Shown: positions 9,352-57,421 of the stretch, one piece after another
Layout of the letters: every line of letters begins with the position of its first letter
How positions within the stretch are numbered: the first letter of the stretch is position 1
Source of the DNA: a virus
Virus record (IMG/VR): IMGVR_UViG_3300011114_000773
Location: 44,298-108,297 of that record
Strand: one strand, 5' to 3'
DNA: 64,000 bases
The notes under the pieces: model-generated
The model's input: only the letters and a program-made list of their open reading frames with translations
Told to the model about the DNA's origin: nothing
Database searches by the model: none
Translations under genes and position numbers: made by a program

Positions 9352-9999
9352 ATGGATGGACATTTAATTAGATTTGATAAACAGTCGAAGTTCTGTTTTG
9401 TGGATATAGAGTCATTTAATCTATGCTTATCTCTGGTATATAATAGGCCTTGGCAAATAGGACTTATCTCAGTCGTCGGAGACTCGATAGTCAAAAGCAA
9501 TGACGTGATAATCAACTGGCCGCATGTAAACGGCTTGACTTGCTCGGAAGGCGCAGCTAGAATCAATCACTATAATCAGTTCTCAGTCGCTAGAGATGGA
9601 ATAACCCCACAGGAGGGATTCGTTATGCTCGACAGTTACCTTTCTGATGCGAAATACATAGTGGGTCATAATTTATTTGGGTTCGACCTATATCTTATTC
9701 GAGATATGTATCGGATGTTTGGCAAACCTTGGCAGCATTTAATTCCAAAAGTAATCGACACTAAAGCAATCGCCTTTGGCGTTAAGACAAACGTCCCATT
9801 CGATGCTAGCAAAGAGAGTATAACCATGTACCAATATAGAATGGGAAATACCAGAGCTAAAGGAGTAAAAACATCACTTTCTACGTTAGCAAAAGAATAC
9901 GGTATAAAATTAGACGAGACTCGCTTGCACGAAGCTTTATATGACTTGGAGATAAATATCCAAGTGTGGAACAAATTAAAATTTCAAATAGACCTATGA
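9352..9999 (+). CDS. DEDDh 3'-5' exonuclease (DnaQ/epsilon-like)
   Basis: FVDIES, VGHNLFGFD, IDT, LHEALYD. Confidence 0.88.
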   Translation: MDGHLIRFDKQSKFCFVDIESFNLCLSLVYNRPWQIGLISVVGDSIVKSNDVIINWPHVNGLTCSEGAARINHYNQFSVARDGITPQEGFVMLDSYLSDAKYIVGHNLFGFDLYLIRDMYRMFGKPWQHLIPKVIDTKAIAFGVKTNVPFDASKESITMYQYRMGNTRAKGVKTSLSTLAKEYGIKLDETRLHEALYDLEINIQVWNKLKFQIDL

Positions 10000-15500: not shown

Positions 15501-16819
15501 TCAATCATGGACAATTTGGAAAAGTTCATGGCCGTCTGGCACATTCTCTCAGAAGGGACTACCGGATTAGAGATTATTGATGATAGCCGTCCAGACCAGT
15601 TATTTATATTTAGCTGGATTGGGACTATTTTAAATCCTGTATGGCCGGTAACTACATTGTATATCTCGTGTGCTACATTAGTAAATGGATATCTTCCGTA
15701 TCCGCTTAGGGAATAACCTACTCTTCCGCTATTGTAATTTCCTACATGCTGCTCGACAATATTTCCCCCGATAGGTTGTTGAAGAATCTCCCGCTGAAAT
15801 GGGGCGACGAACTCTCCCAACGCAGAATCTACGGTAACACCAGCCCCTTCTATTCCGTTCATTTCAATTCCATCAAAACTAGAGAGGACATTAGTATTAC
15901 CAGAGTAGGAGCTTCCTGATAAATGCTGCTTATCCCTGTTATGAAATACATCACCGATAGTAGTCTCAGACCACTCTCCACTAGAGTATGGGCCATCGTT
16001 GAATCTCCTGAAAAATTGCGTTCCTGTAATTGGGTTAATCGCCCTCTCTTTCTCAATACAAGGTAAAACGCGGGGAATTGTGTGAAAATATCTACCAACC
16101 ACGGCTATATGATTCGTGGGATAGATAGGAACATCAATATACTCACAAAATGGGACTCCGTCCCAAGGTTTGGCCGAATAGACGAGTTCTCCGCTAACTG
16201 AATATTCCTGCGATGCCGAATCCTTTGCTTTTACTAGATTCGTCTTTGAACTAAAGCTGTCTGACAAGTCATAATATCTAAAGTATATAGCGGGAGATTC
16301 TATTATTTTTTCAGACTGCTCGTATATAGTGTCAAGGACGGACTGATAGTTGAGTCCAGTGATAGCCTCCACGGCTGCGCGGGAAAAAGGTTCTCCATTC
16401 GGCCCACTGCCAAGAAAATAGTTCAGATGGTCGTATCCTTTGTATAAAAATCCAGTAAAAGACTGGTAGCTTAGGCCAGCGGATAGAGAGCCGAGAGCCA
16501 TCGCCGCCGTCATGGTGGAATAGACGCTCTTGGTAGTAGATGAATATGAATATAAATAGTCAGTAGTTATCTGCTCTTCAATTGCGTGAAAATCTGAACC
16601 ATTTTCAAGGCCGACTATGCTGTTCAATCCAGTATTTCCCGCAAGGTGTAGAGAGTATATTTCGTCTGCCGAGCCGATTTTCCCTAATCCGTTAAGACAC
16701 GCCCTACAAACAGAGAGGTCTAAGCCATCTAGCGACAAACTCTTTTTGCGAAATCTAGCTATCGCTATATTAATAGCAAATGATGCTGCGATTTTTAATT
16801 GTGGGTCAAGTACTGACAT
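12542..16819 (-). CDS. Large putative virion/tail-tip protein (1425 aa)
   Basis: Long ORF rich in G/S/Y/T; co-oriented with the structural block; no recognised motif. Confidence 0.6.
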   Translation of the reverse strand: MSVLDPQLKIAASFAINIAIARFRKKSLSLDGLDLSVCRACLNGLGKIGSADEIYSLHLAGNTGLNSIVGLENGSDFHAIEEQITTDYLYSYSSTTKSVYSTMTAAMALGSLSAGLSYQSFTGFLYKGYDHLNYFLGSGPNGEPFSRAAVEAITGLNYQSVLDTIYEQSEKIIESPAIYFRYYDLSDSFSSKTNLVKAKDSASQEYSVSGELVYSAKPWDGVPFCEYIDVPIYPTNHIAVVGRYFHTIPRVLPCIEKERAINPITGTQFFRRFNDGPYSSGEWSETTIGDVFHNRDKQHLSGSSYSGNTNVLSSFDGIEMNGIEGAGVTVDSALGEFVAPFQREILQQPIGGNIVEQHVGNYNSGRVGYSLSGYGRYPFTNVAHEIYNVVTGHTGFKIVPIQLNINNWSGRLSSIISNPVVPSERMCQTAMNFSKLSMIDLDNSNSGIAGPPQRSTKCDYPYIVVEEDFQSETASRYAGLRLRFGISATEFGYLGNRTTFMGISSGASESFENQNFYQPDEPIQPEVVFGYNIPSTGIIRSEDYSGIIESLCLGMGNGMEKASLSEYGISNNGYIHSGFLFSGGAIPFATVNSSQLGNYLIAKGYSEIPDYVWGNAALDGYGSLSSSGAIIGSPQIEDRMLVGWAHELYGEIPISLLYAYDGTGEYLYSGFDSGLSSSIAGNTVFPFIGPEDGFAKTPHSIGLLSSGWYPVIKTQKRENSFPRYFRGPFATAKKRFLYPAAEQMFGGEIYKSDTEGLDSFENKGNNVFLTKFGKADLIEEYSGKGFPKEIGFPHKVTYNLTIRQYAKREFYKRQAYDAGGGLNTYNYPVNPNSILFDTANSSTPSHAVDENFSQPINQIYSNVFVMADSGSNPFIYDSPPNYIQGFLSDEIGKYSGTNAVVASDFGLRDTGAFIVGHTHIVGYGWYGPDYAATSTKNPVGLFSRYTGYTIPITGSYVMPGYRLETSSFDAESVYSAFSISRNLYEENQSNPERGYGYAGSDPLYLKRVGNFSGITDNYSADEQLNGSRHPTGPSGLVGDSWMGFYSGDKTVDSIRYGYGHYHWDSMFSAGHKREPAKDNRIIIADMKPTGFGFHFAALEYFPGGYSGKKTASSFLDETGYFRSGFARETSGPFNYENQIFSYTGTMETGILYKIPSGSDWGTGVSVTGWQATHTGEIYYWRQQCKIEVIVSNINWSGYGNPPYDVEDLVMPTGNCLITGVLKYENIKERPVLSEGLFLKDISVGDVVKENSLYPQFLSNTMIEHGYQVSIPANCELQYAPSRQLEVTGENVKYLTDESFAEVNTNEKNYNKYIVGAISDYAYLNAKVMPSYDGVTLPDGKMLPETTMLYSACQGQSLADNTVNPIISKLYEVSAQKQYYDAEFTAASGDSRFSESVIPVWRYPQPNVGTLIPKGITWTEYNKGLY

Positions 16820-16838: not shown

Positions 16839-19800
16839 CTAAAGAGACGCAAAGACATTGTAGTTAGCTGCGGTTAGCCCATTTATCAATACCGCTGGGG
16901 TAGTATTCCCCCCGACATGGAGCGTCGGTGTATTATAATTACAATGGTCAGCTCCTCCCTGTTCGCATGGACTTATAGAAAAATCAATCCTAGAGGTTCT
17001 TCTCAGAGTGGCTAGTGAATTAAAAGGAGTGGCAAGGTTATTCGCGGCAAATGTTGTATTCTTAAGGGCAGTCGCATAAGGCGTATTTGCTGGGCCACGC
17101 AGAATTGTAACCAGCCCCCCAGCAGCCGTTGACGCTACAAAATCATCATGCTTTCCGTCCTGAGTAAGAATGACTTTGTACTTAGATAAGCCTCCAGCCG
17201 AAGACATAGATGACATATTAGACATATTAGTCAGCTTTTTTCCTCCCGGTAAAAATCCATGACTATATCTCATACTTAGGCAGGGGTCAAAGCACTTGCC
17301 ACCACGAACGCCCTGTTTGGTGCAGTAATATTCTCCCCCATCAAATAAATTAGTAGAGCTGATATCGTAATAAGCGCATCTAGCTATGTATCCATTAGGG
17401 TCAATTCCAGCAGTATTAACTACTCCACCGTTAAATATAGCCCCGACTTGATTGGACACGAATTCACAATTAGCTCTTACGTCTCCATATCCATAAGCTT
17501 CCCCCGGACCCTCTGAGCGGCCCAAATACATTCTTCTAACAGAGCGATGAGGAAAAGCCAAGCCCCTGATTATTTTTATATTATCAATAGTGGCCATGCG
17601 AGTTGCATTCGAGTCGTTCTTGAAATACAAACCGTAAATAGCAGCAGCGTCATACATTAGTGAATATTTTTGACCCCATCCCATTGAATAGAATCCCTGT
17701 GAGATTCCGTTACCTAGCCTATCTCTATTATGGCGCATAACTTTCCATTGGTATGCGTATGGCCCATACATTGATTTCCTTGTCAAGTAAGTATCGCTCG
17801 GCTGACCAATCCATGCGTACTGAAATGGAGCGTCTCCTTGGCGGAGTCCGGGCGCAATAAATCCCTTATTCGGGACGTTATATTTAGCCTTTGCATCGCA
17901 TAGAATATAGAATCTATCGAATGCTTCCACGAAGTACAGCATTTTTCTTCCAAGACTAGGCTCTACATAGCCACAGTTAGGGCCAGCTAGAGTGTCTGGG
18001 CGGACTACAGTATTTTGTACATAATCAAATGCGTAGCGTGCCATCGCCTGATTTGCCGCGCTTATGTCGTTGACAAATACGAAATCACTTCCCCATACGG
18101 AAGAGTTCATAGCCTCATATCTTGTATAAGCCCCAAATCTTCTAACCGGACCTAGGTTTTGATGAAACTGCCAAGAGGTAGAAACACCCATCTTTATTTC
18201 GTGATTGATATTGTATAGTTGACCCACATGGTCAATATTCGGTACGGGATAGGTATACCCCGGCGGCTGCTTCATCGGAGAAGGGGGATTGGTAAGACCT
18301 ATTTCTGCCGGATTAGTTATGCTCTTATGCTTTACCGCTATTCCATTAATTTGGGCTTCTATCCTAACTCCTTTTCTTCCAATGGGCATTTGATAATTTG
18401 AGCACACTGGTAAATGAGAATGACCATATACAGCTCCACCAATTTTATCAGAAAGGTCTAGCTTATATTGCAGCAATTCTCCATAGTCAACAGGTCTGTG
18501 GTTCATCGCCTTTAGCCCGCGAGTGTCTTCTATAGTTTCCGGCTCGTATGAGCGCAAAACCCCACGAAATCCATCAGAACCGTCAAATCCGAATCCTATA
18601 TTTTGCCCTCCCCCATTTCTGATATATTTTTTTCTAACCATCACCTCTTCTGGAATTGTATAGGCGTCCTGAGCTAATCCATGATACGCGGCGAGTATTG
18701 GAGAACCCTGAATAGAAAATGACTGCGAGATAGCCGTCCCATCCTGCAAAAATCCATTTGATACAGTGCTGTCGATTTTCATTGAAAGAGTCGGATTAAG
18801 AACCGTTCCTCCTCCATTAATGAACGCAATGTCTGTAAGTATGAATTTATCAGCCTCTACAGCGAGCAAGTCACTTCCTCGTATCCCATATCTGCCAGAA
18901 GCGATACAAAAATAAAAATACGAACTAGCATCCGCCGACTTAATCCCTTGGATATAGGAATAGTTGTCTCTATTCGGACCATTGTAGCCGACAGTTGTTC
19001 CATTTTCAGCGACGCATTCCGCTGGATGAATAAATGTACAATTCGGTCCGCTATTGTTTTCTAAACATCCCCATGCCGAACTAGCGCCGACTCCCGCATA
19101 ACTTATTTGGCTATGGGAGTAGTCCCCTTTCAGATATTCTCCAGTGTATGAGACATGAACTCTTCCCCAAGTATATTTCATTGGATAGAGATATCGGTTC
19201 GTTTTAGAAAGTAGCTTGAGCTTATGCGCCCAATAGTATATTTCTGGATGACGAACGCCTATTTTATCTTCTGGAATTGTATGATAATCAACGGCGTGCG
19301 CTCGGAAAGTCGGAGACTGTCCTATCTTGCAAAATGTATTTTTAGGCTGCTGTAGAAGTATCGGAGTGAAGCAGGAGAAGTTTCCATCTAGTTTTCCAAT
19401 TTCGTTATAACCCAACGCTCTCCAAGTATTAACGATTGGAGACGCCGCCAATGTCGTCCTGTCAACCATCATTCCGTCCAGCACAGAAATCATAAGGCCT
19501 TTTGGACCCATTTTTCCACAGCTCTCATTACAGAACATCGAACCTAGCGTGAAATTACTACCCGCCGTAGGATTATCGTCAAGAGAGTTAGGATGCGCGA
19601 TTTTATAATTCGCGTATAGCTCCATAAGACCAGTAAGTCCGGCTCGTTTCCCGAATGTCCCCTCGAAATATCTTCTTGGCACCTCTGGTAACTGTAGGCT
19701 ATTCGGGCCAAATGTAGATGCGCTAATAGAGCCTTCTGCCTTTCTTCCCCATAGGGGCGACGCCTCATAGCTCAATCGACTATCAAATGAATAAACGATG

Positions 19801-21890
19801 TGATTTGTAGGAAACAAGTCAATAGGCTGGCCCAATGAGATATTATTCAAATATCTTGTTCGGATACGCTCTTCTTGGCCCGATACGCCGCTGGTATATG
19901 CGCCATAATTAATCGCAGTAGCGCTTGATTTTATAAGAAATCCGAAGTCAGAGAGCAGGCTGTTATAATTCACAAGGCCTAGCGACCCAGTTATTTCTCT
20001 TCTGCAAGTCGCTGAAAAGTCCAGAGATATTCTATCAAGATGCGAAAAGCTAGTTATATTAGAAAGCGAAGAGTTATATTCATTATAGTCTTCTCTAAAG
20101 CTTATCGGGTCAACTTTCACGTCAATATCGCTACCCGAGATATGATGAGATAAAGATTTAAGAATTCCGCTATAGGACCGCTTAAGCGAATAGAAGATAC
20201 TACTAAATCTAGGGCACTCCAAAAGAAGTGCCGAATAGGCTGGACTATTTTCGACCAACTCCCAATTTGCCCATAGATAATATCCCCTATTAGATACTGC
20301 CCATTCTGTATATTTCTGCTCTCGTTGCGCAATAGCTAGCAGATTATCAAAATAAAAATTGGTATTTGACCCTCCTGCGTCCATCGAACCGCGCTCGTAA
20401 ACCAAAGGAGCAGCGAGCGGCGTATCTATTTCATAGACAGGAATGGGGATAACTTCATTATCTACATCATGTGATATATCCCGAATTAATTTGTTACAAG
20501 TCACTAAAAATCTAGTCCCAAAATATCCGAATTTCCGAATTGCACTATAGTAAGGAACTTCAAAATAGTCTCTCGGACAGTCGTAAACCGTAGCGCCGAA
20601 CGTCCAAGGGAGAAAATCTACCGTCTCTGGGCACTGGCGATTTTCCCACCAGTAATCCGAGTCGGCATAAGAAGGGTCGAATAACTCAGTCCCTTTGCTC
20701 GTCGGCCTAGGATTAATTCCCGGAACTACAGACGAGGTTTGGCTATTAAAAAATGGAAGATAGTCGTGATTTTCTTTGTATGTAAAATGCCAGTAATGCC
20801 AAGGATTATGCGAGAAAGTAGGCTCAAGACTACCAGCATTCATTGGGCTGGCCGGGTCATACGCTAGCGAGTCGAGAGTCCCTCCTATGTTTATTCCCGC
20901 CGTCATCGCTCCCTCCATAGCTGGAGCATCACATAGGGCATTATAGGTTAGTTTATTATTGAGTAGTAAGTCGTTATTTAGCCCTTCTTTTCCGATTACG
21001 TATCCCGTTCCGTAGTTGGCCACATTCAGAAAGTCTGAAGTCTCGCCCATGCCAGTTATAACCGCTATTCCATCTGAGTTTCTGGCAATATTATACCTAG
21101 AGGTAAGCTGTAAATCGAGATAGTCTAAAGAAGTCGGAATTGGGTTGTGGTTATAGACATTTCCAGCCACACCACCGGCGAAAGAACCAGCGCCATAAGA
21201 AAACAACAATTCTGAAAAATAGAAATTTTTTGTCAGTGATGGCGGGCATTCTTCATACGGGGCATGAATTGAGCCTATTTTAGTCGCAATTGGGGAAACT
21301 CCCACATTAAATGGCTCAAGACTCTCGCTGCCGAAGATATTTACACTTACAATGCCCCGGAGTTCGTTATACTCCTTTGGAGTCAGGTTAGCGCAACCTC
21401 CATTTGATAGAGCGTCAGATTTATCAATCGAATCGGAGATGGCTTCGGACAAGGTGGTGACTTCTCCATAAGGCGGCGAATAATAGCCCATCGGATGAAA
21501 ACCCTGATAGTAATTATATATGCCGACTTGAAATGGCTTCGCCTGTCCCCGGCAAGTGTCAAAAAGCTTGACATCCTGAGACTGTCTTAGGCTCCCAGTC
21601 GTGTTAGCCGTAAGAAATGCGGTCGCATGTGCTGGATAAACGGCTAGCCCCAACGCCAACATAGGTGCGTTTGAATAGGAGTATGAACTATTTTGTCCTA
21701 GAAATGCGCCCGGAATGACGGCCTGTGGGTCTTTATTCAAATTTGCAGACTGATTTGCCGAATAAATATTATATCCGCGAGTCCAAGTCGAAGATATGCC
21801 AGTAGGAATAGCGCCAGTGAATATAAATGAAGAACTTCCAGCAAAAACTGGGTCAAACCTTACTGATTGTCCTGATGCTAAAAGTCTCAT
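16839..21890 (-). CDS. Large putative virion protein (1683 aa) with an Ig-like segment
   Basis: PILLQQPKN...PTF...YFYFCIASGRYG Ig-like pattern; Cys-rich; late-type motif upstream. Confidence 0.6.
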   Translation of the reverse strand: MRLLASGQSVRFDPVFAGSSSFIFTGAIPTGISSTWTRGYNIYSANQSANLNKDPQAVIPGAFLGQNSSYSYSNAPMLALGLAVYPAHATAFLTANTTGSLRQSQDVKLFDTCRGQAKPFQVGIYNYYQGFHPMGYYSPPYGEVTTLSEAISDSIDKSDALSNGGCANLTPKEYNELRGIVSVNIFGSESLEPFNVGVSPIATKIGSIHAPYEECPPSLTKNFYFSELLFSYGAGSFAGGVAGNVYNHNPIPTSLDYLDLQLTSRYNIARNSDGIAVITGMGETSDFLNVANYGTGYVIGKEGLNNDLLLNNKLTYNALCDAPAMEGAMTAGINIGGTLDSLAYDPASPMNAGSLEPTFSHNPWHYWHFTYKENHDYLPFFNSQTSSVVPGINPRPTSKGTELFDPSYADSDYWWENRQCPETVDFLPWTFGATVYDCPRDYFEVPYYSAIRKFGYFGTRFLVTCNKLIRDISHDVDNEVIPIPVYEIDTPLAAPLVYERGSMDAGGSNTNFYFDNLLAIAQREQKYTEWAVSNRGYYLWANWELVENSPAYSALLLECPRFSSIFYSLKRSYSGILKSLSHHISGSDIDVKVDPISFREDYNEYNSSLSNITSFSHLDRISLDFSATCRREITGSLGLVNYNSLLSDFGFLIKSSATAINYGAYTSGVSGQEERIRTRYLNNISLGQPIDLFPTNHIVYSFDSRLSYEASPLWGRKAEGSISASTFGPNSLQLPEVPRRYFEGTFGKRAGLTGLMELYANYKIAHPNSLDDNPTAGSNFTLGSMFCNESCGKMGPKGLMISVLDGMMVDRTTLAASPIVNTWRALGYNEIGKLDGNFSCFTPILLQQPKNTFCKIGQSPTFRAHAVDYHTIPEDKIGVRHPEIYYWAHKLKLLSKTNRYLYPMKYTWGRVHVSYTGEYLKGDYSHSQISYAGVGASSAWGCLENNSGPNCTFIHPAECVAENGTTVGYNGPNRDNYSYIQGIKSADASSYFYFCIASGRYGIRGSDLLAVEADKFILTDIAFINGGGTVLNPTLSMKIDSTVSNGFLQDGTAISQSFSIQGSPILAAYHGLAQDAYTIPEEVMVRKKYIRNGGGQNIGFGFDGSDGFRGVLRSYEPETIEDTRGLKAMNHRPVDYGELLQYKLDLSDKIGGAVYGHSHLPVCSNYQMPIGRKGVRIEAQINGIAVKHKSITNPAEIGLTNPPSPMKQPPGYTYPVPNIDHVGQLYNINHEIKMGVSTSWQFHQNLGPVRRFGAYTRYEAMNSSVWGSDFVFVNDISAANQAMARYAFDYVQNTVVRPDTLAGPNCGYVEPSLGRKMLYFVEAFDRFYILCDAKAKYNVPNKGFIAPGLRQGDAPFQYAWIGQPSDTYLTRKSMYGPYAYQWKVMRHNRDRLGNGISQGFYSMGWGQKYSLMYDAAAIYGLYFKNDSNATRMATIDNIKIIRGLAFPHRSVRRMYLGRSEGPGEAYGYGDVRANCEFVSNQVGAIFNGGVVNTAGIDPNGYIARCAYYDISSTNLFDGGEYYCTKQGVRGGKCFDPCLSMRYSHGFLPGGKKLTNMSNMSSMSSAGGLSKYKVILTQDGKHDDFVASTAAGGLVTILRGPANTPYATALKNTTFAANNLATPFNSLATLRRTSRIDFSISPCEQGGADHCNYNTPTLHVGGNTTPAVLINGLTAANYNVFASL

Positions 21891-22542: not shown

Positions 22543-24459
22543 ATGAGAAAAAAAAAGATTTTATTCCAGAGCGACTACTCCTGCGCCAAAACAGGATTTG
22601 GGCGCGTATCTAAAACTCTCTTAGAGTATCTTTATAAAACTGGTAAATACGATATAACGCACTACTGCTGTGGAATGCAGTATAGTCATCCCGACTTATC
22701 CAGAACGCCGTGGCGGTCCATCGGCTGTCTTCCTGATGACCCAAGGGAGATTGAGGCATTAAATCGTGACCCGATGCTTGCTAGAGACGCAAGTTATGGG
22801 TCAGTCCTTCTCAACAAGGTCGTTGAAGAAATTCAGCCAGATATCTATCTTGCTGCGCAGGATATTTGGGGAGTTGATTTCGCAATCAATAGGCCGTGGT
22901 TTAATAAGACTAATTCTTTCATCTGGACTACGCTAGACTCACTTCCCATCCTTGACGCCGCAATAGAAGCGGCTAAAAAGACGAAGAACTACTGGATATG
23001 GAGCAGTTTCGCTACCGAGGCTCTGCATAAATTGGGGCAAAATCATGCCAAAACCGTTCATGGCCCAATTGACGCAAAAGATTTCTATAGGCTAGATTCT
23101 GCGAAGAAGGCCGCTCTCAGAGTCTCCGCAGGAATTTCGCCCAACACCTTTGTCGTCGGATTCGTCTTCCGCAACCAGCTAAGAAAGTCTGTACCCAATC
23201 TGCTAGAGGGGTTCAAACTGTTCAAGCAAAGGAAATCTGACGTAATCCCATCAAAACTGCTCCTACATACGCATTTTGGAGAAGGGTGGAAGATTCCAAA
23301 GCTCGCTGCTGAATATGAGATAGATATCGCTGATATCCTAACGACTTATATTTGCCGCGCTTGTTCTCAATATCATGTCTCTAGCTTTTCGGGTATGGAT
23401 GTAGCTTGTCCGCACTGCAAAAATGATAAATCCTGTACCACTACCCAGCCGGGGCTGGGAGTCTCAGAAGAGGCTCTGAATGAGGTTTATAATCTAATGG
23501 ATGTCTATTGCCATCCCTTTACCTCTGGCGGTCAGGAGATTCCTATTCAAGAGGCGAAACTGGCGGAACTTATCACGCTTGTCACTAATTACTCTTGCGG
23601 TTCCGAAATGTGCCAAGAGGCTGCGGCATCTTTTCCGCTAGACTTCGCTGAATATAGAGAGCCTCAGACAGAGTTTATTAAGGCCTCGACCTCCCCAGCC
23701 TCCATAGCGAAGCAACTGCTAAAGGTCTATAAGATGAGCGATGATGGACGAAGGGATATGGGTAAGCGCGCCCGCAAGTGGGCACTGGAAAACTTTTCGG
23801 TTGACGTAGTCGGCAAGTCTATAGAGAAAGTTTTTGACGAACTCCCATTTGTGGACTACTCAGGAGTATCCTTTGATGAGGAGCGTCGTGACCCAAATTG
23901 TGTCGTTCCAGATATCGCTGATAACTGCGAATGGATTACATTCTTATACCACAATATTCTTAAGCGGCCTACTACCGATAGGACCGATGCTGGGCACCAG
24001 TATTGGGCTAAGGAATTAGAGAAAGGGACGCCGCGAGCTTCTGTAGAGGCCTATTTTAGACAAGTGGCTAGCCAAGAGAACGCTAAGACTAAACCTCTTG
24101 ACTTGAAAGAGCTTCTCGGTGAAGAGCCTGCTAGCGAAAGAATGCTGTTCGTAATACCCGAGTCTATCGGCGATGTGTTTATATGCACGTCTCTATTCGA
24201 GAATCTTCGCAAGGCTAACGATAATCGCTTGCTATATGTCGCCACCAAGCCTGAATATTTTTCTATTCTTGAGGGCAATCCTCATGTCCATAAGGTGATT
24301 CCTTATCTGCCGATTATGGATAACCTGCTCGTTTTAGAGGGTCAAGGGTCAAATCCGGGATATTTTGATATCGCATTTTTACCTTATGTGGGAACGCAAA
24401 GAATGCTGGATTATGTTCACAACGGAAAAGATAAAATTACTCTCAACCTGACTTCTTAA
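22543..24459 (+). CDS. GT4-family glycosyltransferase with a Zn-ribbon insert, fused to the N-terminal lobe of a GT9
   Basis: TGFGRV, RNQLRKS, LNEVYNLMDVYCHP, GGQEIPIQEA; CRAC/CPHC insert; C-terminal ESIGDV...EGNPHVHKVI. Confidence 0.85.
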   Translation: MRKKKILFQSDYSCAKTGFGRVSKTLLEYLYKTGKYDITHYCCGMQYSHPDLSRTPWRSIGCLPDDPREIEALNRDPMLARDASYGSVLLNKVVEEIQPDIYLAAQDIWGVDFAINRPWFNKTNSFIWTTLDSLPILDAAIEAAKKTKNYWIWSSFATEALHKLGQNHAKTVHGPIDAKDFYRLDSAKKAALRVSAGISPNTFVVGFVFRNQLRKSVPNLLEGFKLFKQRKSDVIPSKLLLHTHFGEGWKIPKLAAEYEIDIADILTTYICRACSQYHVSSFSGMDVACPHCKNDKSCTTTQPGLGVSEEALNEVYNLMDVYCHPFTSGGQEIPIQEAKLAELITLVTNYSCGSEMCQEAAASFPLDFAEYREPQTEFIKASTSPASIAKQLLKVYKMSDDGRRDMGKRARKWALENFSVDVVGKSIEKVFDELPFVDYSGVSFDEERRDPNCVVPDIADNCEWITFLYHNILKRPTTDRTDAGHQYWAKELEKGTPRASVEAYFRQVASQENAKTKPLDLKELLGEEPASERMLFVIPESIGDVFICTSLFENLRKANDNRLLYVATKPEYFSILEGNPHVHKVIPYLPIMDNLLVLEGQGSNPGYFDIAFLPYVGTQRMLDYVHNGKDKITLNLTS

Positions 24460-25686: not shown

Positions 25687-26439
25687 ATGAACGACACTCC
25701 TATCTTAAACGCAACAGCGACGCCTCCAATTGTTCTCACCAGAAATTCATTTGGACTCATTGCTAATGTACCATCTATCTCCTACTCCTATACGGATGTA
25801 GGTCTTGTCGATTGGCGTAGGATGATTAACCAGAAATTTCTTGTTCCCAATAAGCAAAAAACAAAAGAAACAGACATCTCAAAACTAGAAGATAAAGACA
25901 TTCTCATCCTTTTAGGCGGAGTGAAAGAGCTTGCTCAAATTCGAGGAATCACTTTTGTCAACTATACGGTTACGACATTCTCAACTGATTCTGTCACTGC
26001 TGTCTGTTCTATCGGATTCATTCCTAATTATGAGACAGAGATGCGCGAAGTCGTCTTTTCTGCCATCGGAGACGCTACAGCGTCAAACACCAGCGGCTTT
26101 GGAAGAAACTTTCTCGCCGCAATAGCGGAAAACCGCGCATTCGTGCGCTGTGTCAGAAACTTTTTAAGAATTAACATTGTCGGTAGCGACGAACTGAATT
26201 CTGAAGGAAATGCTGCACCGTCGGAGCAGACTATAGAAAAATCTGCTGCTGATGGCTCTCCAGTAAGCCTTCTATCTGCCGAGATGGAGAAGCGCGGACT
26301 TAAGTTATCTCATATTATAGCAAGACTCCGTGACGAAAATTACCCCGCTACCGACGCCATTAAAGACCTTTCCGACTTACCCGGAATTAAAGTCCTCGAA
26401 CTAATCGGTCGTATCAAAAAGATACCTGTTAAGTCGTAG
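25687..26439 (+). CDS. Rad52/RecT-superfamily single-strand annealing protein
   Basis: GGVKELAQIRG...FSAIGDA...AIAENRAFVRCVRNFL annealase-like pattern. Confidence 0.6.
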   Translation: MNDTPILNATATPPIVLTRNSFGLIANVPSISYSYTDVGLVDWRRMINQKFLVPNKQKTKETDISKLEDKDILILLGGVKELAQIRGITFVNYTVTTFSTDSVTAVCSIGFIPNYETEMREVVFSAIGDATASNTSGFGRNFLAAIAENRAFVRCVRNFLRINIVGSDELNSEGNAAPSEQTIEKSAADGSPVSLLSAEMEKRGLKLSHIIARLRDENYPATDAIKDLSDLPGIKVLELIGRIKKIPVKS

Positions 26440-38188: not shown

Positions 38189-41100
38189 TTAGCTTACCTT
38201 TTCTTTGACTGGAGGAGGAAGTCCTCTCTGAGAACTGGTTATTTCTACAAGCTTATTTACAGATATCGCTATTGATGCGAGATTAGACGAGTCGGCCTCC
38301 GCGCTCTTAGAGGCCACTGGAATTGCTGGAGTAGCTGGGTTAGCTGGGGCTATCGGCTGGCCCTTTTCATCAAGACCTTTCTTACGGTTCTCTTCTTTAT
38401 TTTTTTCTTTTTCATCAGCTATCTCGTCTTTTTTGTTCTTATCTTCAAGAGCTTTCTTAATCTCCTCACCTATCTTGTTTAGCGTATCGTTAGACTCCTT
38501 TATAGCCGCTGTCAAGACGTTATTCGCCGCAGTTACCTCGCGAGTGTCAAACACAAACGGCGTAGTAGAGAGTCTCGTTATAGCGGCTTCTAACGATTCG
38601 GTAGATTTTGCTAGCGCGGCATTCGAGTTAATGAGAGGACTCATATCCCCCAAGCCCGCGCCCTTGGCAATGCCCTGCGCTGTGACGTTTTTGTCTTCTC
38701 CCTTTAAAACAGTCCTAGCTCTAGCTAAGTCCAATTCTTGCACGTTACTCGCCCCAAAAGCCCCTAGCGTTTTACGAAGGCCGACTGCTGTCGCGTTGTT
38801 CCCAGCAGACACGATTCCGAATTGACGCGACCTATTTATGGCATTTCCCTTTGCTAACTGAGCCTGAATAGGAGCCACAACTTCGTCAGGGAGAGAGTCC
38901 CCGAACATATTAGTTAAGGCCTGTCCGTACCTCTTGGTAGCAAATCTATCGCCGCGCTCATATCCGCGCTTGTCCTTACGTAGTTGCCTTTCCGCGTCGC
39001 GTTCTTCTTTGCGACTGTCAGGAGCGGCACCGAACATCTTACCCTTTCTCTGTTCGTCTAGTATAGCGATTTGTCCTTTATATGCCTGATTTTGAATCGC
39101 GAGTTGAGACACGGCAGCGGCCCCAGCGTTTTCTATGCCGCGAGTCATAGTGGTGTTTAGTTCGTCAATAAGTTGATATAGTTTAGTGTCCTCTGCCCCC
39201 TTTAAAATCTCGTTCTTAAGAGAACCCTCTGGGGTAATCGCTCCAGTAACAGTTTTGAAATATCCCAGTATCTCTTGAGGAGTCATCGGTGCCCCCTGAC
39301 TTTTTCTGGTATTAACACCCTGAGAAACAACCCCCATAATTCGGGAGACTTCCCCCTTGGCCTTCAATACGTCTTCATTTATCCTAACATCTCCTCCTGC
39401 TGTTTTATACTTGCTATCTGATTTAGATAAAATATTGTCTGTGATTGACGATATAGATTTATTCGCAGCCTCTGTGGAAATAGTAGCTTTCTCTTCTCCT
39501 AATTTGGTATAGACTTCTTGGCTTTTTTGTTCATTGCCTAGTCTTAATTGTGTCCCTGCCCCATATCTCATTCCCGCCAACGAGACTGCATCTGTCCCCA
39601 TTTGTAGATTGACCGAGTTTTTGGTTGACTGAAGCTTGTCGGCAAGAGTCGCCGCCTGTAGGAGATTACCGACATAGGCCTTAACAGAGCTATCTACCTT
39701 ATATATAGCCGTGTCTCTCTTTCCCTCTGCAATTTGCTCGGCGTTTTTCGCATTGCGGATAACCTTAATGTCTCCCGTTCGAGCCGCTGTGATTTCCTTT
39801 TCATTTTTGAGACTTCTCTCTTCTAGTTTGTTGCGAGTGAATAGTTCTTTTGTATATTTTTCAGCGACTGCTAGATTTTTTGTATGCTGCTCATATACAT
39901 CTTGGGTGATGGCTTTTTGAGCGAGAAGAGCTGCCATTACTTCTAAGGCGTTACCTCTTATCGCTTGACGAGTTACGGCTCCCGTGTCAGACGCGCCAAA
40001 TCCGCCCTGACCGCCGACAATGACACGCTGCCGCTGCTCGGTGACATCTTCCAGCAAAGGCATTTTTTTGCGCACTGTCGCGACGGCGTCTGTCTCTTTT
40101 TTACCCAAGTTAGCATATTCTCCACCATATAGTTCTTTTTCCTTTTGAGATATGGATTTTTGCTCCTGCTCTCCCGGACGGAACCATCTGGTTCTTTTCA
40201 ATTCGTCCATCTTTTCAAACTCAAGGGCGCGTTCGGAAGTACCTGTTTCTTTTTTGTGCTCTTCTTGGATGGCTCCAGCAACGCGCTGTCTTCCTTCTGT
40301 AGTTGACTGGGCGTTAATCCTTCCTCTTTCCATTGCGGTCAAACTTAATAAACTCTTGGATACTTTATTTTGAGTGTCTATTATTGTTTTAGTAGAGACT
40401 GAGGCGTCACTATACATCTGACTAAGATTTCCGATAGCTTGGCTATACTCAGAAAGAGCTGTTCCTGATATATTGAACTCGCTCTTCATAACGTCTAGCG
40501 CCGCCGCCATCTCTGGTGATTTATTAGACCAAGACTCCCAAGCCTTTATAAAACCTGGGATACTTATGATAGCAGCCGTAGCTATGCCTAACGGACCCGG
40601 AATGACAGACATCACCTGTGCGGCAGTCCCAAATGTTTCTGCCACCATTGACATCGACTTTCCAGCAGCCGTTTCTTGGGGTATAAATCCGGCGATAGTA
40701 CTAATACCAGCAGATGTGGCAAGTGAGTAAGACATTGACTTTCTATTGAAGTCGTCTTTCTTTTGCGCTTTATCCACCGCCAGTTGAGCCTGTTGTATCC
40801 TCATTGAGTGAGGAGTCTCTGCCAACTTAGCTGTCGTTAAAGCTTGCTCGTCAGCGGCTCTGCTGGCAAACCCTGTCCGGTACGTCTGCATTACTGCTGA
40901 ATTTGACATCTGTGTAGCTCGTCTGGACGTATTCCATCCCGGTGCGCCAGAGGCATTAATTTGTGCTTGAAGTCTCTGATTCTGTTGCGTAAGCACTACA
41001 TGCGCCCTCTTAGCTAAATCTCTCTGGACTGCTGGTCCAGTATTGAGAGCAGATAGGCCAGCTCTTTCAATGATAGACCTCTCACTATACCTGTCGGCTA

Positions 41101-49475: not shown

Positions 49476-49482
49476 AGATATG

Positions 49483-49800
49483 TTATCCTACCGAAGCTAT
49501 GCTGCCAACAACAATCTTTTTTACTGTTTTTCTTGTCTGTTTGACGGCGGCAAGTCGGGATGAGTTTAGATAGAAATCGAACACGTCAATTAGGGCATGA
49601 ATTTCTCTAATCGTGTCGTTACCTGCGTCTAAAGTCTGCTTGCGGATTAGTTCTAAGTCATGCGGCGTGATGACCTTACCTTGGTAGGACTCGAAGATGG
49701 CGAGTTCGGCTTTGAAAAGCCGAGTGATATTTGATTGAATTAGTTGATTAACTAAGTCACGATTATTGATACCCTGAGCCTCTAAAGAAACGTGTTCCAT
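49483..49800 (-). CDS. Hypothetical protein
   Basis: Co-oriented ORF with a late-type motif upstream. Confidence 0.65.
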   Translation of the reverse strand: MEHVSLEAQGINNRDLVNQLIQSNITRLFKAELAIFESYQGKVITPHDLELIRKQTLDAGNDTIREIHALIDVFDFYLNSSRLAAVKQTRKTVKKIVVGSIASVG

Positions 49801-49821
49801 ATTCCTACATGGGTTTACACG

Positions 49822-49849
49822 AAAAAACCCGCGAAGGGAATCGCGGGTT
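49822..49849 (-). terminator. Intrinsic terminator after the tail tube gene
   Basis: AACCCGCGA-ttccct-TCGCGGGTT followed by a T-run on the - strand. Confidence 0.88.
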
Positions 49850-49871
49850 GGCTCCTATGTTAGAGAGCAGA

Positions 49872-50723
49872 CTAGCTGATAACGATATCCGTGCCTTCGA
49901 CGGTGAAGTTGTAGGTCGCGCCGACATTTCCAGCGGCCTGATTGAAAGATTTGGAAGTGACAATGCCGTCGTTGAATACTACTGTAATAACGTCGTTTAC
50001 TTCTCCGAATACGACCTTCCTTACGCTTTCGGCAGAGGTTCCCTCAACGACAATCGTACCCTTGAACGGAGGTTTACCTACTTGAACATGGGCGCTAGCT
50101 ACAGCTACTTGCGAACCGCTAAGAACACCGCCCAAGCAACTAACGACTTCGTTCGGTATGTCCATATTGAACTTTACCGAGTTCGGGCAGCTATTATTAT
50201 AGTTAGAATCTGAGGTCTGAGCGTAAAGACGCACACCCGTCGTAATAGGTGACACGGCGACTGCGGCACCCGGCTGCGTTCCAGCACCACCGATACTAGA
50301 CAACTGGGCATCATAATCAGGCTCACCGACACCAGCGAAACTCAGGTCGAGCATCGCGAAGTTGCCTTTGGACATATCAATACCAATCTTAGACACAATT
50401 CCGCTCATTGTATAGCCGTTTGGAGTGACTTTGACCGTGCTGACTCCACCGGCGAGAGCTTCTCCTGTCAAAAGGCTTAGAAAACTTCCTAATACAGAAT
50501 TAGCGTCTCCACTATCATTTCCTAGATAAATCTTAACGTCAGACTTGCAAGTAGCTACCTCTTTCTGAAATCGTCCGGCTGAACCGAGCTTTCCGAGAAT
50601 CGAGATGTCTTCAATAGGGATAGAAGTCTCGCAGTTAGCGCTTTGAACCGGAAAACTCTTTGTTGTTCCGGCGTTATTCTTAATCGTGCAAAGTTGCGAT
50701 GCGTATAGTGTTCGTGCTGGCAT
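49872..50723 (-). CDS. Major tail tube protein
   Basis: VQSANCETSIPIEDISILGKLG tube-like N-terminus; position; own terminator. Confidence 0.7.
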   Translation of the reverse strand: MPARTLYASQLCTIKNNAGTTKSFPVQSANCETSIPIEDISILGKLGSAGRFQKEVATCKSDVKIYLGNDSGDANSVLGSFLSLLTGEALAGGVSTVKVTPNGYTMSGIVSKIGIDMSKGNFAMLDLSFAGVGEPDYDAQLSSIGGAGTQPGAAVAVSPITTGVRLYAQTSDSNYNNSCPNSVKFNMDIPNEVVSCLGGVLSGSQVAVASAHVQVGKPPFKGTIVVEGTSAESVRKVVFGEVNDVITVVFNDGIVTSKSFNQAAGNVGATYNFTVEGTDIVIS

Positions 50724-50784
50724 AGGTTTAAAGGGTTATTTTATCTAAAAATATATACAGACAAAGACAGACAATGGGAACTAT

Positions 50785-51627
50785 TTAGTGCGCTCTAACT
50801 TGAGAAATCTCGAAATCTACGACTGTTATCTTTAAATCGTCCAAGGAACTCTCGCTAAAATTCCTAGATAAGCGCGATTCTTGGACTCCCTGAATTAATG
50901 GACCTAAGTACGTGCCAGAGGCGGCTGTCGCTAATCCAGAGTAATTATACGACGTGCCTATATACGCCTGCTCGGCGTCAAATGGTGGAGAAATAAACGA
51001 GAATCTCCTAAAATGGGTGTCTTTTAATATGGAAACCACCCCGTCTCTCAGGTAGTCGTTATCTGTTATAACGAAAGCTCTAATATCCACTACTGCTTCG
51101 TCAACCGCACCCAAAGAGAACGGCTTATTCTCTCCTCCACGTTTTTTGAGAAAAATCGCAGGTAATGTATATGAGTTCGTCGCCAAACCAGTTACCGTCT
51201 GAGGGGTCTGCGGATTCTTCTGAAATTTAGTATAGAAAAGCAGTTTTTCGTCGTTATCAGAGGTTGTATAAATATTAATTTCTTTTACGGAAAATGTGCC
51301 GCTCATTGACGAAGCTGGATAATTCGGATATGATGCGTCGAAATCGACTGTCCCCTGATAATGATTTATGGAAAGTAGGCCGCTCGTCCCTACAGTAACG
51401 GGAATACCCGATATTTGGACCGAAGTCATTACCGTAGCGCCAGATACAGACGCATCATTAACTAATTGCTTAAATGGCAGAGAGTATGTGCGCCGCCCTA
51501 CATATTGACTGGTCGCCGGATAAAATCGAGACTGATAATTAAAAAACGCCTCTCCGCTGGTCAATATCCTATTGTCTAGGAATAATGCCAAACTCGACAA
51601 AACTTGATGGTCATGTTGACGTTTCAT
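50785..51627 (-). CDS. Putative tail terminator/completion protein
   Basis: Upstream of the tube gene; TLPAIFL...VDIRAFVITD pattern. Confidence 0.55.
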   Translation of the reverse strand: MKRQHDHQVLSSLALFLDNRILTSGEAFFNYQSRFYPATSQYVGRRTYSLPFKQLVNDASVSGATVMTSVQISGIPVTVGTSGLLSINHYQGTVDFDASYPNYPASSMSGTFSVKEINIYTTSDNDEKLLFYTKFQKNPQTPQTVTGLATNSYTLPAIFLKKRGGENKPFSLGAVDEAVVDIRAFVITDNDYLRDGVVSILKDTHFRRFSFISPPFDAEQAYIGTSYNYSGLATAASGTYLGPLIQGVQESRLSRNFSESSLDDLKITVVDFEISQVRAH

Positions 51628-52217
51628 TATAAGCGTATTCTCTCAAAGTTTACACGGAAACGCTCCAGCATCGGGGTTATATATTGCATTCTTGTGGATT
51701 CAGAGGTTTTTCTGAGCACAGCCTCTACCTCAATACCGCCTCCAGAACGACCGAGTCTTTTAATAGCTAAAAAGTGTCCTAAACCAGATATCCCCTTCTC
51801 CACTTCTATCGCCCAACCCGCGCCCTGTTGCCACTCGAAAGGAGTCGCTGATATAATAGACTTTCTATCTGGAAGCGGTATAACGAAGACCCATTTATTA
51901 TCGACATATTTCGGTTCAATATATGATATAGACTCAAGAAGTTCTCTTAGTCTTTCAGTCGGTTTATCCCCCTCATTAAAACCAATGAATGAAAATAGAT
52001 TACCATACCCTCCTAATGTCCCAGAGATATTGCCAGAACCCGGATTTTCTATTTCCTGAGTTATTAAGTGATTATCGAAAGCCTCCAACAAGTCTCTTTT
52101 TTGAGAAGATAAAGTCCTTTTTACGTATCTTTCGGCTAGCTCAAGGCTTTTCAGCTTATAGTCTCTACTCGCAAATATAGTCTCAGTGATTGAGCCAAAA
52201 TCTATAACAGCACTCAT
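51627..52217 (-). CDS. Putative neck/tail-completion protein
   Basis: Gene order; WAIEVEKG...QYITPML, HK97 gp10-like pattern. Confidence 0.5.
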   Translation of the reverse strand: MSAVIDFGSITETIFASRDYKLKSLELAERYVKRTLSSQKRDLLEAFDNHLITQEIENPGSGNISGTLGGYGNLFSFIGFNEGDKPTERLRELLESISYIEPKYVDNKWVFVIPLPDRKSIISATPFEWQQGAGWAIEVEKGISGLGHFLAIKRLGRSGGGIEVEAVLRKTSESTRMQYITPMLERFRVNFERIRL

Positions 52218-52660
52218 TATTGCACCTGTTCTAAGTCAAAGACGTAGTATTCATCCGTCAGAAAGTAGTTTTTCACTCCTTGCCCTTTTATCTTCCAATC
52301 CGAATCTGCCACTGATATTTTTTCTGTAGTTCCCTCTGTGATGTATTGGTAACAGTCAGAACGCACTTTTATTTGAGTACTCGCGCTAGCGTAATGGACA
52401 TTCAAATTTCGTTCTATTGGTCCATCTGCTAATTTTGGCGTAGAGAACGTACCCGAAAATACGGTATTCACTGGGACATAAGTAAAATCATCTATCGGAT
52501 GACTGTTAGAGTATCCAAAAGTTACATCTCCAGAACCGATAGAACAGGCCAATTTAAGCGGCGTTTTATGCACTGTGATAGGCAAGCAAAAAGTATCGAA
52601 CATACTTCTCATTATGCCAGTACATAGCGCCATCTCTGTATCTGAAAGGAGTAGGCTCAT
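52217..52660 (-). CDS. Putative head-closure protein
   Basis: Size, beta-rich C-terminus and gene order. Confidence 0.5.
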   Translation of the reverse strand: MSLLLSDTEMALCTGIMRSMFDTFCLPITVHKTPLKLACSIGSGDVTFGYSNSHPIDDFTYVPVNTVFSGTFSTPKLADGPIERNLNVHYASASTQIKVRSDCYQYITEGTTEKISVADSDWKIKGQGVKNYFLTDEYYVFDLEQVQ

Positions 52661-53148
52661 TAATTATTATTGGTATAGTAAGCAGGAACAGTATCGTCTC
52701 CATGTACAGCCCCCGGCCCTCCGCGCCCGCTATTGCAGTCTTCAATTAGGAAGTTCAATTCAGCTACGTCTTGATTCTTCATATCCTTGAGAACTTTGAT
52801 GACCTCATTTTTATTAACGCGGACGATTGTGCTTCCGTTATCGGTTACTTCGAGCAGCGAGTCCGAGTCTAATGACGTGAGCTTCTGTCTAATTACAGTA
52901 TCCCAACGATATACCTCATACATTTTTTTATATACCGCCCATTGGCAGCCACTTTCAATAGGAACGTCATCTATATTTACAATCTGCTCCCCATTAGAAG
53001 CGCCGCTCACTAATGAAAAATTAGAAAAAGTCTTGGCATTCAGGCCGACTATGTTGGTCCGCACCCAGTACTGCACCGCCGCCTCAGACAAGTCCGTAGG
53101 CGAACCGATATTTGTGTATATCTCTAGGGCTAATCCTGAAGTTGTCAT
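52660..53148 (-). CDS. Putative head-tail adaptor
   Basis: Size, helical character and gene order. Confidence 0.5.
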   Translation of the reverse strand: MTTSGLALEIYTNIGSPTDLSEAAVQYWVRTNIVGLNAKTFSNFSLVSGASNGEQIVNIDDVPIESGCQWAVYKKMYEVYRWDTVIRQKLTSLDSDSLLEVTDNGSTIVRVNKNEVIKVLKDMKNQDVAELNFLIEDCNSGRGGPGAVHGDDTVPAYYTNNN

Positions 53149-53156
53149 ACGTAATA

Positions 53157-57421
<4,265 letters not shown>

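Follow-up and report, generated by a model that had tools for sequence, protein, structure and literature searches.

What does a short peptide do when it recurs seven times within a single phage tail protein? The protein in question is a tape measure protein (TMP) encoded in a 64,000-nucleotide stretch of viral DNA (hereafter the window; positions 44,298 to 108,297 of IMG/VR record IMGVR_UViG_3300011114_000773), and its source is an uncultured aquatic long-tailed phage with a genome of about 185 kb, judging from relatives. A prediction made earlier from the letters of the window (hereafter the original prediction) had read the middle of this TMP as a series of enzyme domains punctuated by copies of the peptide, which was proposed to act as a cleavage or packaging signal. 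Here, we describe the middle region as an array of exchangeable modules that lies within a bona fide phage TMP and is fenced by a single near-invariant peptide, and propose, with a probability that we put at about 0.6, that the TMP serves as a cargo rack and that its junction tag is read by a partner in trans.

The junction peptide and the modules it separates

The TMP gene is a single uninterrupted open reading frame (ORF) on the minus strand of the window (38189–47734, stop codon included) that encodes 3181 residues from a TTG start. The database copy begins at an ATG two codons downstream and has 3179 residues; this ATG, at 47728, is the end coordinate given in the original prediction. The product is a TP901-type tape measure protein, because its matches to the core domain exceed curated cut-offs: PF10145 matches residues 122–309 (E = 1.6e-28, 100.4 bits against a cut-off of 33.2) and TIGR01760 matches with E = 1.6e-33 (116.2 bits against 28.8), and PHROG TMP families match residues ~20–460. 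These results bear out the description of residues 1–548 as a normal TMP domain. At the other end, hydrophobic peaks at residues 2151–2169 and 2374–2392 follow the last copy of the peptide, AlphaFold predicts residues 2159–2209 as a helix, and a long low-aromatic region extends downstream of the hydrophobic segments, in agreement with the proposed C-terminal half (residues 2146–3181) bearing membrane segments.

Between these ends, the motif G[HYW][VI]PNF occurs seven times, with its Gly at residues 549, 1363, 1549, 1747, 1920, 2062 and 2140. All seven positions are exactly those first reported, against an expectation by chance of ~0.17 PNF tripeptides in the protein, and within the whole 108-kb record the full motif is confined to the TMP ORF. 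Five of the seven copies read GHVPNF with differing codons. No exact 16-mer is repeated within the gene, and the DNA contexts of the motifs share at most 15 nucleotides, mostly 5–9. Each position of the motif, in 284 copies from 80 related loci, shows all of its synonymous codons. Codon usage therefore agrees with the original statement that the peptide rather than the DNA is conserved, and the motif is maintained by selection acting at the peptide level.

A search with the middle region recovered 46 giant TMPs of 1830–4022 residues, nearly all with 2–13 motif copies. IMG/VR contains at least 468 relatives; 80 of them were fetched, and of these the majority carry 2–11 copies. Cutting the 46 proteins at the motif produced 292 modules in 97 families, whose labels (F0, F1 and so on) are used below together with the labels P0003, P0004 and P0005 for three close relatives. 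The parts of the window TMP are as follows.

38189–47734, minus strand: whole tape measure gene, 3181 residues from TTG, 3179 from the ATG at 47728
46091–47734, minus strand: N-terminal TMP core domain, residues 1–548, module F0 (PF10145, TIGR01760, PHROG TMP families)
46073–46090, minus strand: junction motif 1, GWVPNF, residues 549–554
45875–46072, minus strand: F2-like conserved frame module, residues 555–620, containing EIPNFG, with its terminal motif decayed to GGNLPDKKY
44630–45874, minus strand: F10a, residues 621–1035, with a P-loop (GAAGVGKTT) and a HIGH-type nucleotidyltransferase-like part (GAFTPYHIGH, SRI..T.IR)
43649–44629, minus strand: F10b, residues 1036–1362, a copy of the common middle cassette with a PD-(D/E)xK-like signature
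43631–43648, minus strand: junction motif 2, GYIPNF, residues 1363–1368, where homology to P0003 and P0005 breaks
43091–43630, minus strand: F8 cassette, residues 1369–1548, zincin-like, with HEEFGH and E[AS]FAQ (alignment of 5 sequences)
43073–43090, minus strand: junction motif 3, GHVPNF, residues 1549–1554
42497–43072, minus strand: F6 cassette, residues 1555–1746, ADP-ribosyltransferase-like (alignment of 8 sequences)
42479–42496, minus strand: junction motif 4, GHVPNF, residues 1747–1752
41978–42478, minus strand: F3 cassette, residues 1753–1919, with GNAT motif-A-like KGxG/A..[LM]F and YPQL.YR (alignment)
41960–41977, minus strand: junction motif 5, GHVPNF, residues 1920–1925
41552–41959, minus strand: F29 cassette, residues 1926–2061, GNAT-like (sub-threshold Pfam and NCBIfam matches)
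41534–41551, minus strand: junction motif 6, GHVPNF, residues 2062–2067
41318–41533, minus strand: F1 conserved terminal frame module, residues 2068–2139, predicted helix-strand-strand-helix (AlphaFold)
41300–41317, minus strand: junction motif 7, GHVPNF, residues 2140–2145
38192–41299, minus strand: C-terminal part (C), residues 2146–3181, presumed ruler and membrane part (hydrophobic segments, low-aromatic region)

Read from the N-terminus, the window TMP has the order F0 / F10 / F8 / F6 / F3 / F29 / F1 / C. The corresponding orders are F0 / F10 / F6 / F30 / F39 / F8 / F3 / F31 / F40 / F41 / F18 / F1 / C in P0003, F0 / F10 / F30 / F42 / F8 / F3 / F31 / F18 / F1 / C in P0004, and F0 / F10 / F43 / F29 / F18 / F1 / C in P0005. 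All four proteins have F0, F10, F1 and C in common at 54–93% identity, with C parts 54–75% identical in the three relatives. The N-terminal parts are 90–93% identical among these close relatives, yet the set and the order of the cassettes differ; F8, for example, precedes F6 in the window TMP and follows it in P0003. BLAST blocks begin and end at the motif: a 93% block shared with P0003 stops at residue 1369, and the F8 block opens at 1363. In P0005, F8 is retained only behind a degenerate GFAPNF. The proposal that the motifs delimit independently exchangeable modules is thus supported, as homology blocks are bounded by the motif, the inter-motif domains vary in content and order, and the flanking N and C parts stay conserved. 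Taken together, these comparisons show that gain, loss, duplication and reordering of modules all take place with the junction peptide as the limit of each unit.

The lengths of the parts follow the same division. Among the close relatives the N part measures 552–554 residues and the C part 1019–1036, whereas the cassette region ranges from 1584 to 2331 and so differs by ~750 residues between proteins with 90–93% identical N parts. Because the two ends hold their length while the region between them varies, the cassettes are presumably not ordinary ruler sequence.

An array found in a metagenomic assembly could also be an artefact, either a chimera or a set of unrelated ORFs read through by chance, and the exact cassette order of the window TMP is indeed unique among the sequences found. 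However, the ORF stays open over 9.5 kb, and the absence of a repeated 16-mer, with motif contexts sharing no more than 15 nucleotides, left the assembler nothing to mis-join on. The frame is moreover common to independently assembled relatives (P0003, P0004, P0005 and L006), and adjacencies of the window TMP recur in independent assemblies, F8 then F6 in P0048 and an F6-like module then F3 in P0018. Chimerism, which the original prediction had named as a way in which it could fail, is therefore unlikely, and we consider the chance that the array is an artefact to be negligible.

The family motif can be written h-[AS]-x-G-[FYH]-[IV]-P-N-F-[small], and a logo of 245 copies reads h-[AS 95%]-x-G-[F42 Y37 H15]-[I55 V41]-P-N-F-[A66 N12 S7 G4]. 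The residue at +6 from the motif start is A, N, S or G in ~90% of these copies, and the 10–15 residues ahead of the motif are mildly enriched in G, K and S. In the 80 loci (~1.5 Mb), the 284 motif copies all lie in TMP ORFs, with one chance match in a 27-codon ORF, and a stop codon directly follows none of the 284. A coding-pattern scan of IMG/VR DNA for GFIPNFA covered at least 120 stretches; of the 189 matches listed, 176 fall in the reading frame of giant or multi-motif ORFs, and most of the others listed lie in tiny ORFs. By these counts, the motif is essentially private to this TMP family. A 250-residue ORF with no known family elsewhere in the window (25687–26439, plus strand) contains SIGFIPNY, the sole near-motif outside the TMP in the 108-kb record, which is most likely a chance occurrence.

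The variable positions of the motif are homogenised within each protein, forming lineage 'dialects'. Two copies from the same protein carry the same +1 residue with a probability of 0.617, compared to 0.431 after shuffling, and the same +2 residue with 0.599 compared to 0.485; none of 2000 shuffles reached the observed value at either position. The same shuffle test showed no effect at +6, the residue after the Phe. Such dialects would fit a lineage-matched reader acting in trans. The tag also has a direction, in that F8 always ends in Y[SN]GG[HY][VI]PNF whatever module follows, and the motif ahead of F8 varies with the module upstream. As the variable motif positions and the three residues preceding the motif travel with the upstream module, each cassette can be described as a domain plus a C-terminal tag.

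A passive structural joint would need neither a reader in trans nor cleavage: the peptide would be a permissive, short and rigid turn between domains, and recombinants would survive only there. The spacing around the motif agrees with such a role, since the ExE of F6 lies 7 residues before the motif Gly and the first conserved strand of the next module begins 4 residues after it, making the motif itself the linker, and AlphaFold assigns the motif no defined structure or pairing. However, six near-invariant residues maintained across hundreds of diverged phages, in up to 13 copies per protein, far exceed what a linker needs; lineage dialects exist; and other multidomain proteins encoded in the same genomes lack the motif. 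We regard a purely passive joint as improbable.

The conserved frame and the cassettes within it

Across the family, the frame consists of the N-domain, a module termed F2, a module termed F1, and the hydrophobic and helical C-terminal part, with the variable cassettes lying between F2 and F1. F2 is a module of 65–66 residues following the N-domain (consensus EEAEAR.LGA..VRA...GTIGGK.FVMNNQETEIPNFG.NGDSAVIP.Y), and the F2 of the window TMP is 56–62% identical to that of distant relatives, motif-less TMPs among them. Because its terminal motif has decayed to GGNLPDKKY, F2 is fused to the next module in the window TMP. An EIPNF[GA]G element inside F2 also occurs in motif-less TMPs, and the window TMP carries EIPNF at residue 597. 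The motif-less relatives contain the N-domain, F2 and the C part in one chain.

F1 is a module of ~75 residues that precedes the hydrophobic segment (consensus NAL.DAV.RE.AGL..S.IRV...NP.GLGV.N..DEP). Of 120 TMPs with at least three motifs, 103 contain F1, and of the seven motif-less TMPs none does; on this distribution F1 belongs to the motif system. The original prediction had counted it as a last, short variable module, an assignment that we revise, since F1 is part of the conserved frame. An AlphaFold model of F1 built from a 40-row alignment has a predicted local distance difference test score (pLDDT) of at least 90 over residues ~2068–2129 and a helix-strand-strand-helix topology. Both motifs flanking F1 are unpaired in this model, with pLDDT 44–69, and lie outside the folded core, which for F1 speaks against the possibility that the motifs are buried structural elements. 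Foldseek found no match to the F1 fold at E ≤ 0.001, and VIA matches covered only its trailing helix. A paralogous relationship between F1 and F2 was considered and rejected (hhalign probability 0.2%).

Curated libraries recognise almost nothing in the cassettes. Pfam, PHROG, NCBIfam and PDB sequence searches with the whole protein, the modules and module profiles returned only the TMP core and sub-threshold GNAT matches. Among 1.84 billion representative proteins, four cassettes have 29 relatives, nearly all of which are giant motif-bearing TMPs or their fragments. Homologues of F8 and F6 occur only inside giant proteins, and the motif draws modules to wrong places in mixed alignments.

The first module of the window TMP (residues 555–1362), which had been read as one unit with kinase, nucleotidyltransferase and nuclease folds, is a composite of F2, a P-loop/HIGH part (F10a) and a copy of the common middle cassette (F10b). 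In F10a, a Walker A motif (G.aG.GKTT), GAF.P..GH and SRI..T.IR are conserved in 4 sequences, and the HIGH of the window TMP corresponds to TKGH in two distant relatives. F10a has no Pfam match and no standalone homologue of 228–727 residues; its nearest clusters in the ESM protein language model, AAA_33/APS_kinase/Zeta_toxin and CTP_transf_like phage proteins at 0.88, serve as a lead only. F10b conserves IF[DE], GGDFDV and GDFK in 10 sequences, together with an SM..K.L signature, and is homologous to the single middle cassette of minimal four-motif TMPs. The F10b family is present in 44 of 143 TMPs, motif-less ones among them, and on this distribution an F10b-like cassette was rejected as a universal partner of the motif or a protease acting on it.

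F8 carries HEEFGH and E[AS]FAQ, invariant in 5 sequences at 40–95% identity, and has no Pfam or PDB match. In F6, [YF]RG, LS[TA]S and ExE (E.E[VI]) occur in this order and are conserved in 8 sequences at 27–55% identity, the arrangement of an R-S-E type ADP-ribosyltransferase (ART) motif series (Arg, S-T-S and ExE in order). No Pfam, NCBIfam or PDB sequence match to F6 was found; the named ESM clusters that lie closest to it (NarE, Scabin-like, Pertussis_S1 and Lart1, at 0.90–0.93) are all ARTs, again a lead only. At the start of F6, ~38–42 residues (residues ~1566–1607; window ~42914–43039, minus strand) resemble ubiquitin residues ~29–67. We rejected this likeness as repeat-inflated and probably due to chance, as polyubiquitins match with E = 6e-7 to 9e-6 and single ubiquitin with E = 0.75.

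F3 is the commonest cassette family, with 39 instances in the relatives, and has no Pfam or PDB match. Both F3 and F29 contain a motif-A-like Q/KGxG/A. F29 matches Pfam Acetyltransf_10 with E = 3.9e-4 at 20.8 bits, below the gathering score of 23.6, and NCBIfam ArsN1b with E = 1.7e-4, far below the cut-off.

Modules of such different types fall within one range of size and charge. Internal modules across the family have a median length of 172 residues (interquartile range 77–254), and every module of the window TMP has an isoelectric point of 8.7–10.8. Of the cassettes with at least 100 residues, 95% carry a net positive charge, averaging +4.2 per 100 residues compared to +1.3 for N parts and +0.6 for C parts. 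Solved tail tubes have electronegative lumens ~4 nm wide. That unrelated folds keep to a common regime of size and charge would be in keeping with modules that reside, bead-like, in the tail lumen.

What the junction peptide may do

We propose that the conserved TMP frame carries a variable payload, a string of small, basic, fast-evolving modules held between F2 and F1. The modules would be threaded like beads in the electronegative lumen of the tail and would exit together with the remainder of the TMP, immediately before the DNA, so that ready-made enzymes (ART-, GNAT-, kinase/nucleotidyltransferase-, nuclease- and zincin-like) could reach the host before phage gene expression. The tail thus probably carries a changeable protein payload into the host. 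In this model, the junction peptide would be read by a conserved, lineage-matched partner in trans. As to what the reading achieves, site-specific proteolysis after the Phe (PNF/A,S,N,G), either at tail maturation or post-ejection, is our tentative assignment; docking, with either a tail assembly factor or the tube as the target, comes close to it in likelihood. Together, cleavage at the motif, effector release and injection would make the tail a delivery device for separate enzymes.

Several observations weigh against this reading. No neighbouring gene separates motif-bearing from motif-less loci among ~70 loci, and neither a protease nor any other partner was recognised among the TMP neighbours. 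Folded modules would have to be accommodated during tube assembly, a difficulty for the proposed reading. Local duplication of modules could also yield a dialect within a protein. No cultured relative is present among 50,697 deposited phages: close DNA or protein relatives are absent from this set, which offers only TP901-type N-domains at 25–28% identity. The enzyme assignments of the original prediction are weakly supported. Motifs of catalytic type (ART, zincin, P-loop/HIGH, D...DxK and GNAT-like) are conserved, but no module reaches a curated family threshold in Pfam or NCBIfam, Pfam searches of 14 giant relatives returned the TMP core and one GNAT match only, and the AlphaFold model of F8 and F6 was unusable (pLDDT 35.8 from a three-row alignment). 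We treat the enzyme labels as plausible leads.

Two further points on the same side concern how the peptide could be processed. Of 118 motif-rich TMPs, only 9 have an HExxH in their cassette region, so the embedded zincin was rejected as a general processing enzyme, and with it the earlier suggestion of an internal metallopeptidase as the general protease for the motif. Moreover, no natural gene split occurs at any of the 284 motifs in the 80 loci. Since genes are not split at the motifs and the motif-less relatives form one chain, covalent continuity is needed at least while the tail assembles.

These points bear most directly on a true polyprotein, in which each junction would be a protease site, cut by the embedded metallopeptidase or by a prohead protease, and modules would be released with ...PNF ends. 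The form of the motif speaks for this possibility: a recognition stretch of ~9–10 residues followed by a small residue (A, N, S or G in ~90%) is like many viral polyprotein sites, the motifs are exposed in the F1 model, and the dialects would fit co-evolution with a protease pocket. The window TMP also contains the zincin-like HEEFGH module, and Iyer et al. 2017 proposed processing of polyvalent proteins by a metallopeptidase (PMC5512222). However, the rarity of HExxH noted above, the retention of F8 in P0005 only behind the degenerate GFAPNF, and the failure to recognise any protease family among the neighbours all argue against an embedded or neighbouring enzyme. The tails of long-tailed phages assemble apart from heads, which makes a prohead protease an unlikely agent. 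In addition, cleavage of all the sites would part the N-domain from the ruler, and natural gene splits are absent from the 284 motifs. We hold a polyprotein in this full sense as a candidate at odds well below even.

A docking or assembly signal would require no cleavage. Here, the peptide would bind a conserved tail component, such as a chaperone-like protein from a gene immediately upstream or the inner face of the tube; each inserted module would thereby stay fit for tail assembly, and the modules would stay tethered. The presence of EIPNF[GA]G in F2 even of motif-less TMPs suggests that 'IPNF' is an old part of the frame, the motif occurs once per module and moves with it, and the genes are unsplit at motifs. 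In all loci the genes upstream of the TMP form a conserved block, and the dialects would fit a co-evolving binding groove. By contrast, no partner was recognised, the upstream proteins belong to no recognisable family, and docking does not obviously require the strong preference for a small residue after the motif. We hold docking without cleavage as a candidate at similar odds to the polyprotein.

The cargo rack read in trans, our preferred reading, accommodates either activity of the peptide. Its strongest form would be a programmable rack, in which the junction peptide, recognised by a dedicated and lineage-matched factor for processing or docking, is a portable tail-loading tag. Any small basic domain bearing this tag at its C-terminus could then be loaded, and the tagged enzymes would be released in the host cytoplasm ahead of the DNA, to serve takeover or counter-defence; this form is speculative, and we put it forward with reserve.

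Genomic setting, known systems and implications

The TMP lies in a conserved block, with the gene order fam6-5-3-4-2-7-1-0-TMP-11-12-15 maintained in ~70 loci, motif-bearing and motif-less alike. The structural genes neighbouring the TMP have no PHROG or Pfam name, except for a collagen/fibre-like protein, and no sheath gene was recognised. The eight genes directly upstream of the TMP (47759–53148, minus strand) keep the same order in ~70 loci and lack PHROG and Pfam matches. The two nearest the TMP (47759–48652 and 48630–49475; 297 and 281 residues, overlapping by 23 nucleotides) occupy the usual position of tail assembly chaperones and are twice the usual size, and a further gene of the block (49872–50723) encodes a candidate tube protein. 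Next to this block is a gene for a 913-residue protein (53157–55898, minus strand) that has a Hoc-like Ig domain and matches collagen-like and tail-fibre families in PHROG; this fibre-like protein sits upstream of the presumed tail block, not downstream of the TMP.

Elsewhere in the window, an 859-residue DnaE-type DNA polymerase III alpha subunit (9966–12545, plus strand) matches DNA_pol3_alpha with E = 6e-59 and has finger, HHH_6 and OB domains, so a C-family replicative polymerase is among the phage's own products. No Pfam family at E ≤ 0.001 matches either of two giant neighbouring ORFs, of 1425 and 1683 residues (12542–16819 and 16839–21890, both minus strand). A 638-residue protein (22543–24459, plus strand) has a weak group 1 glycosyltransferase match (25.2 bits against a cut-off of 26.4) and a DUF4214 match. 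No tRNA or tmRNA genes were found in window positions 1–64000 of this large phage genome.

In GTDB genomes, the close relatives occur only on contigs of metagenome-assembled genomes (MAGs) from many phyla, with Flavobacteriia recurring. Phage contigs of 30–210 kb with related TMPs (L090, L094, L097, L101, L103, L107 and others) are likewise placed in MAGs of unrelated phyla and groups, including Marinimicrobia, Flavobacteriales, Halobacteriovorax, Saccharibacteria, Cellvibrionales and Nitrospinales. This scattered attribution is probably binning contamination, and host inference from it is unsafe.

How does the array compare with known systems? TP901-1-type TMPs (PF10145, TIGR01760) have the same N-terminal core, hydrophobic segments and long C-terminal part, and the conserved block that contains the window TMP is probably a tail gene block like theirs. 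Enzyme motifs embedded in TMPs are familiar from Mt3 of mycobacteriophage TM4 and pb2 of T5. In contrast to TP901-1-type TMPs, ~1,600 residues of the window TMP, half of the protein, form a string of six modules (up to 12 in relatives), which a single invariant peptide delimits and which close relatives exchange.

Polyvalent proteins, described by Iyer, Burroughs, Anand, de Souza and Aravind in 2017, are reportedly anchored to head-associated or conjugation modules and not to TMPs. They are giant virion-associated strings of ART, GNAT, nuclease, kinase-type and metallopeptidase domains, for which injection with the DNA and processing by the embedded metallopeptidase have been proposed (PMC5512222). 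The window TMP would likewise be a string of several such domains, if the putative labels of its modules hold. Unlike polyvalent proteins, its family has a conserved junction peptide and an HExxH module in only 9 of 118 relatives, and the text describing polyvalent proteins mentions neither tape measure proteins nor a junction motif (PMC5512222).

TMPs or TMP-related proteins that carry functional domains are known in two further settings. The TMP of Thermus phage P23-45, gp96, has 5,002 residues and its N-terminal portion is the virion RNA polymerase (PMC10770324). There, an enzyme is part of a TMP and acts in the host before phage gene expression, as we propose for the window TMP; however, gp96 has one fixed enzyme, no exchangeable array and no junction motif, and the text does not mention cleavage (PMC10770324). 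Sle1-type TMP-related effectors of actinobacterial contractile injection systems are packaged in a tail-like tube and ejected (PMC13277306, PMC11126660). Their functional domains are likewise diverse and are experimentally exchangeable, but each protein has one functional domain, belongs to a non-phage nanomachine and lacks a repeated delimiting peptide. Our literature search found no paper that joins 'tape measure' with the motif or describes motif-fenced TMP arrays, in line with the original remark that no description of a motif-delimited TMP was known.

TMPs are usually regarded as rulers and channel formers, with few known cases of a fixed embedded enzyme. In this family, hundreds of uncultivated aquatic phages use the TMP as a rack for interchangeable, peptide-marked modules, and G[FYH][IV]PNF provides a simple sequence handle with which to find such arrays in metagenomes. 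Should the modules be delivered, host defences would first meet a set of phage proteins that is rapidly shuffled and that current family libraries do not recognise, and the arrays would hold a large reservoir of takeover or anti-defence activities not yet known. If the proposed reading is true, the junction peptide becomes a candidate tag, too, with which proteins of choice might be loaded into phage tails or tail-like particles.

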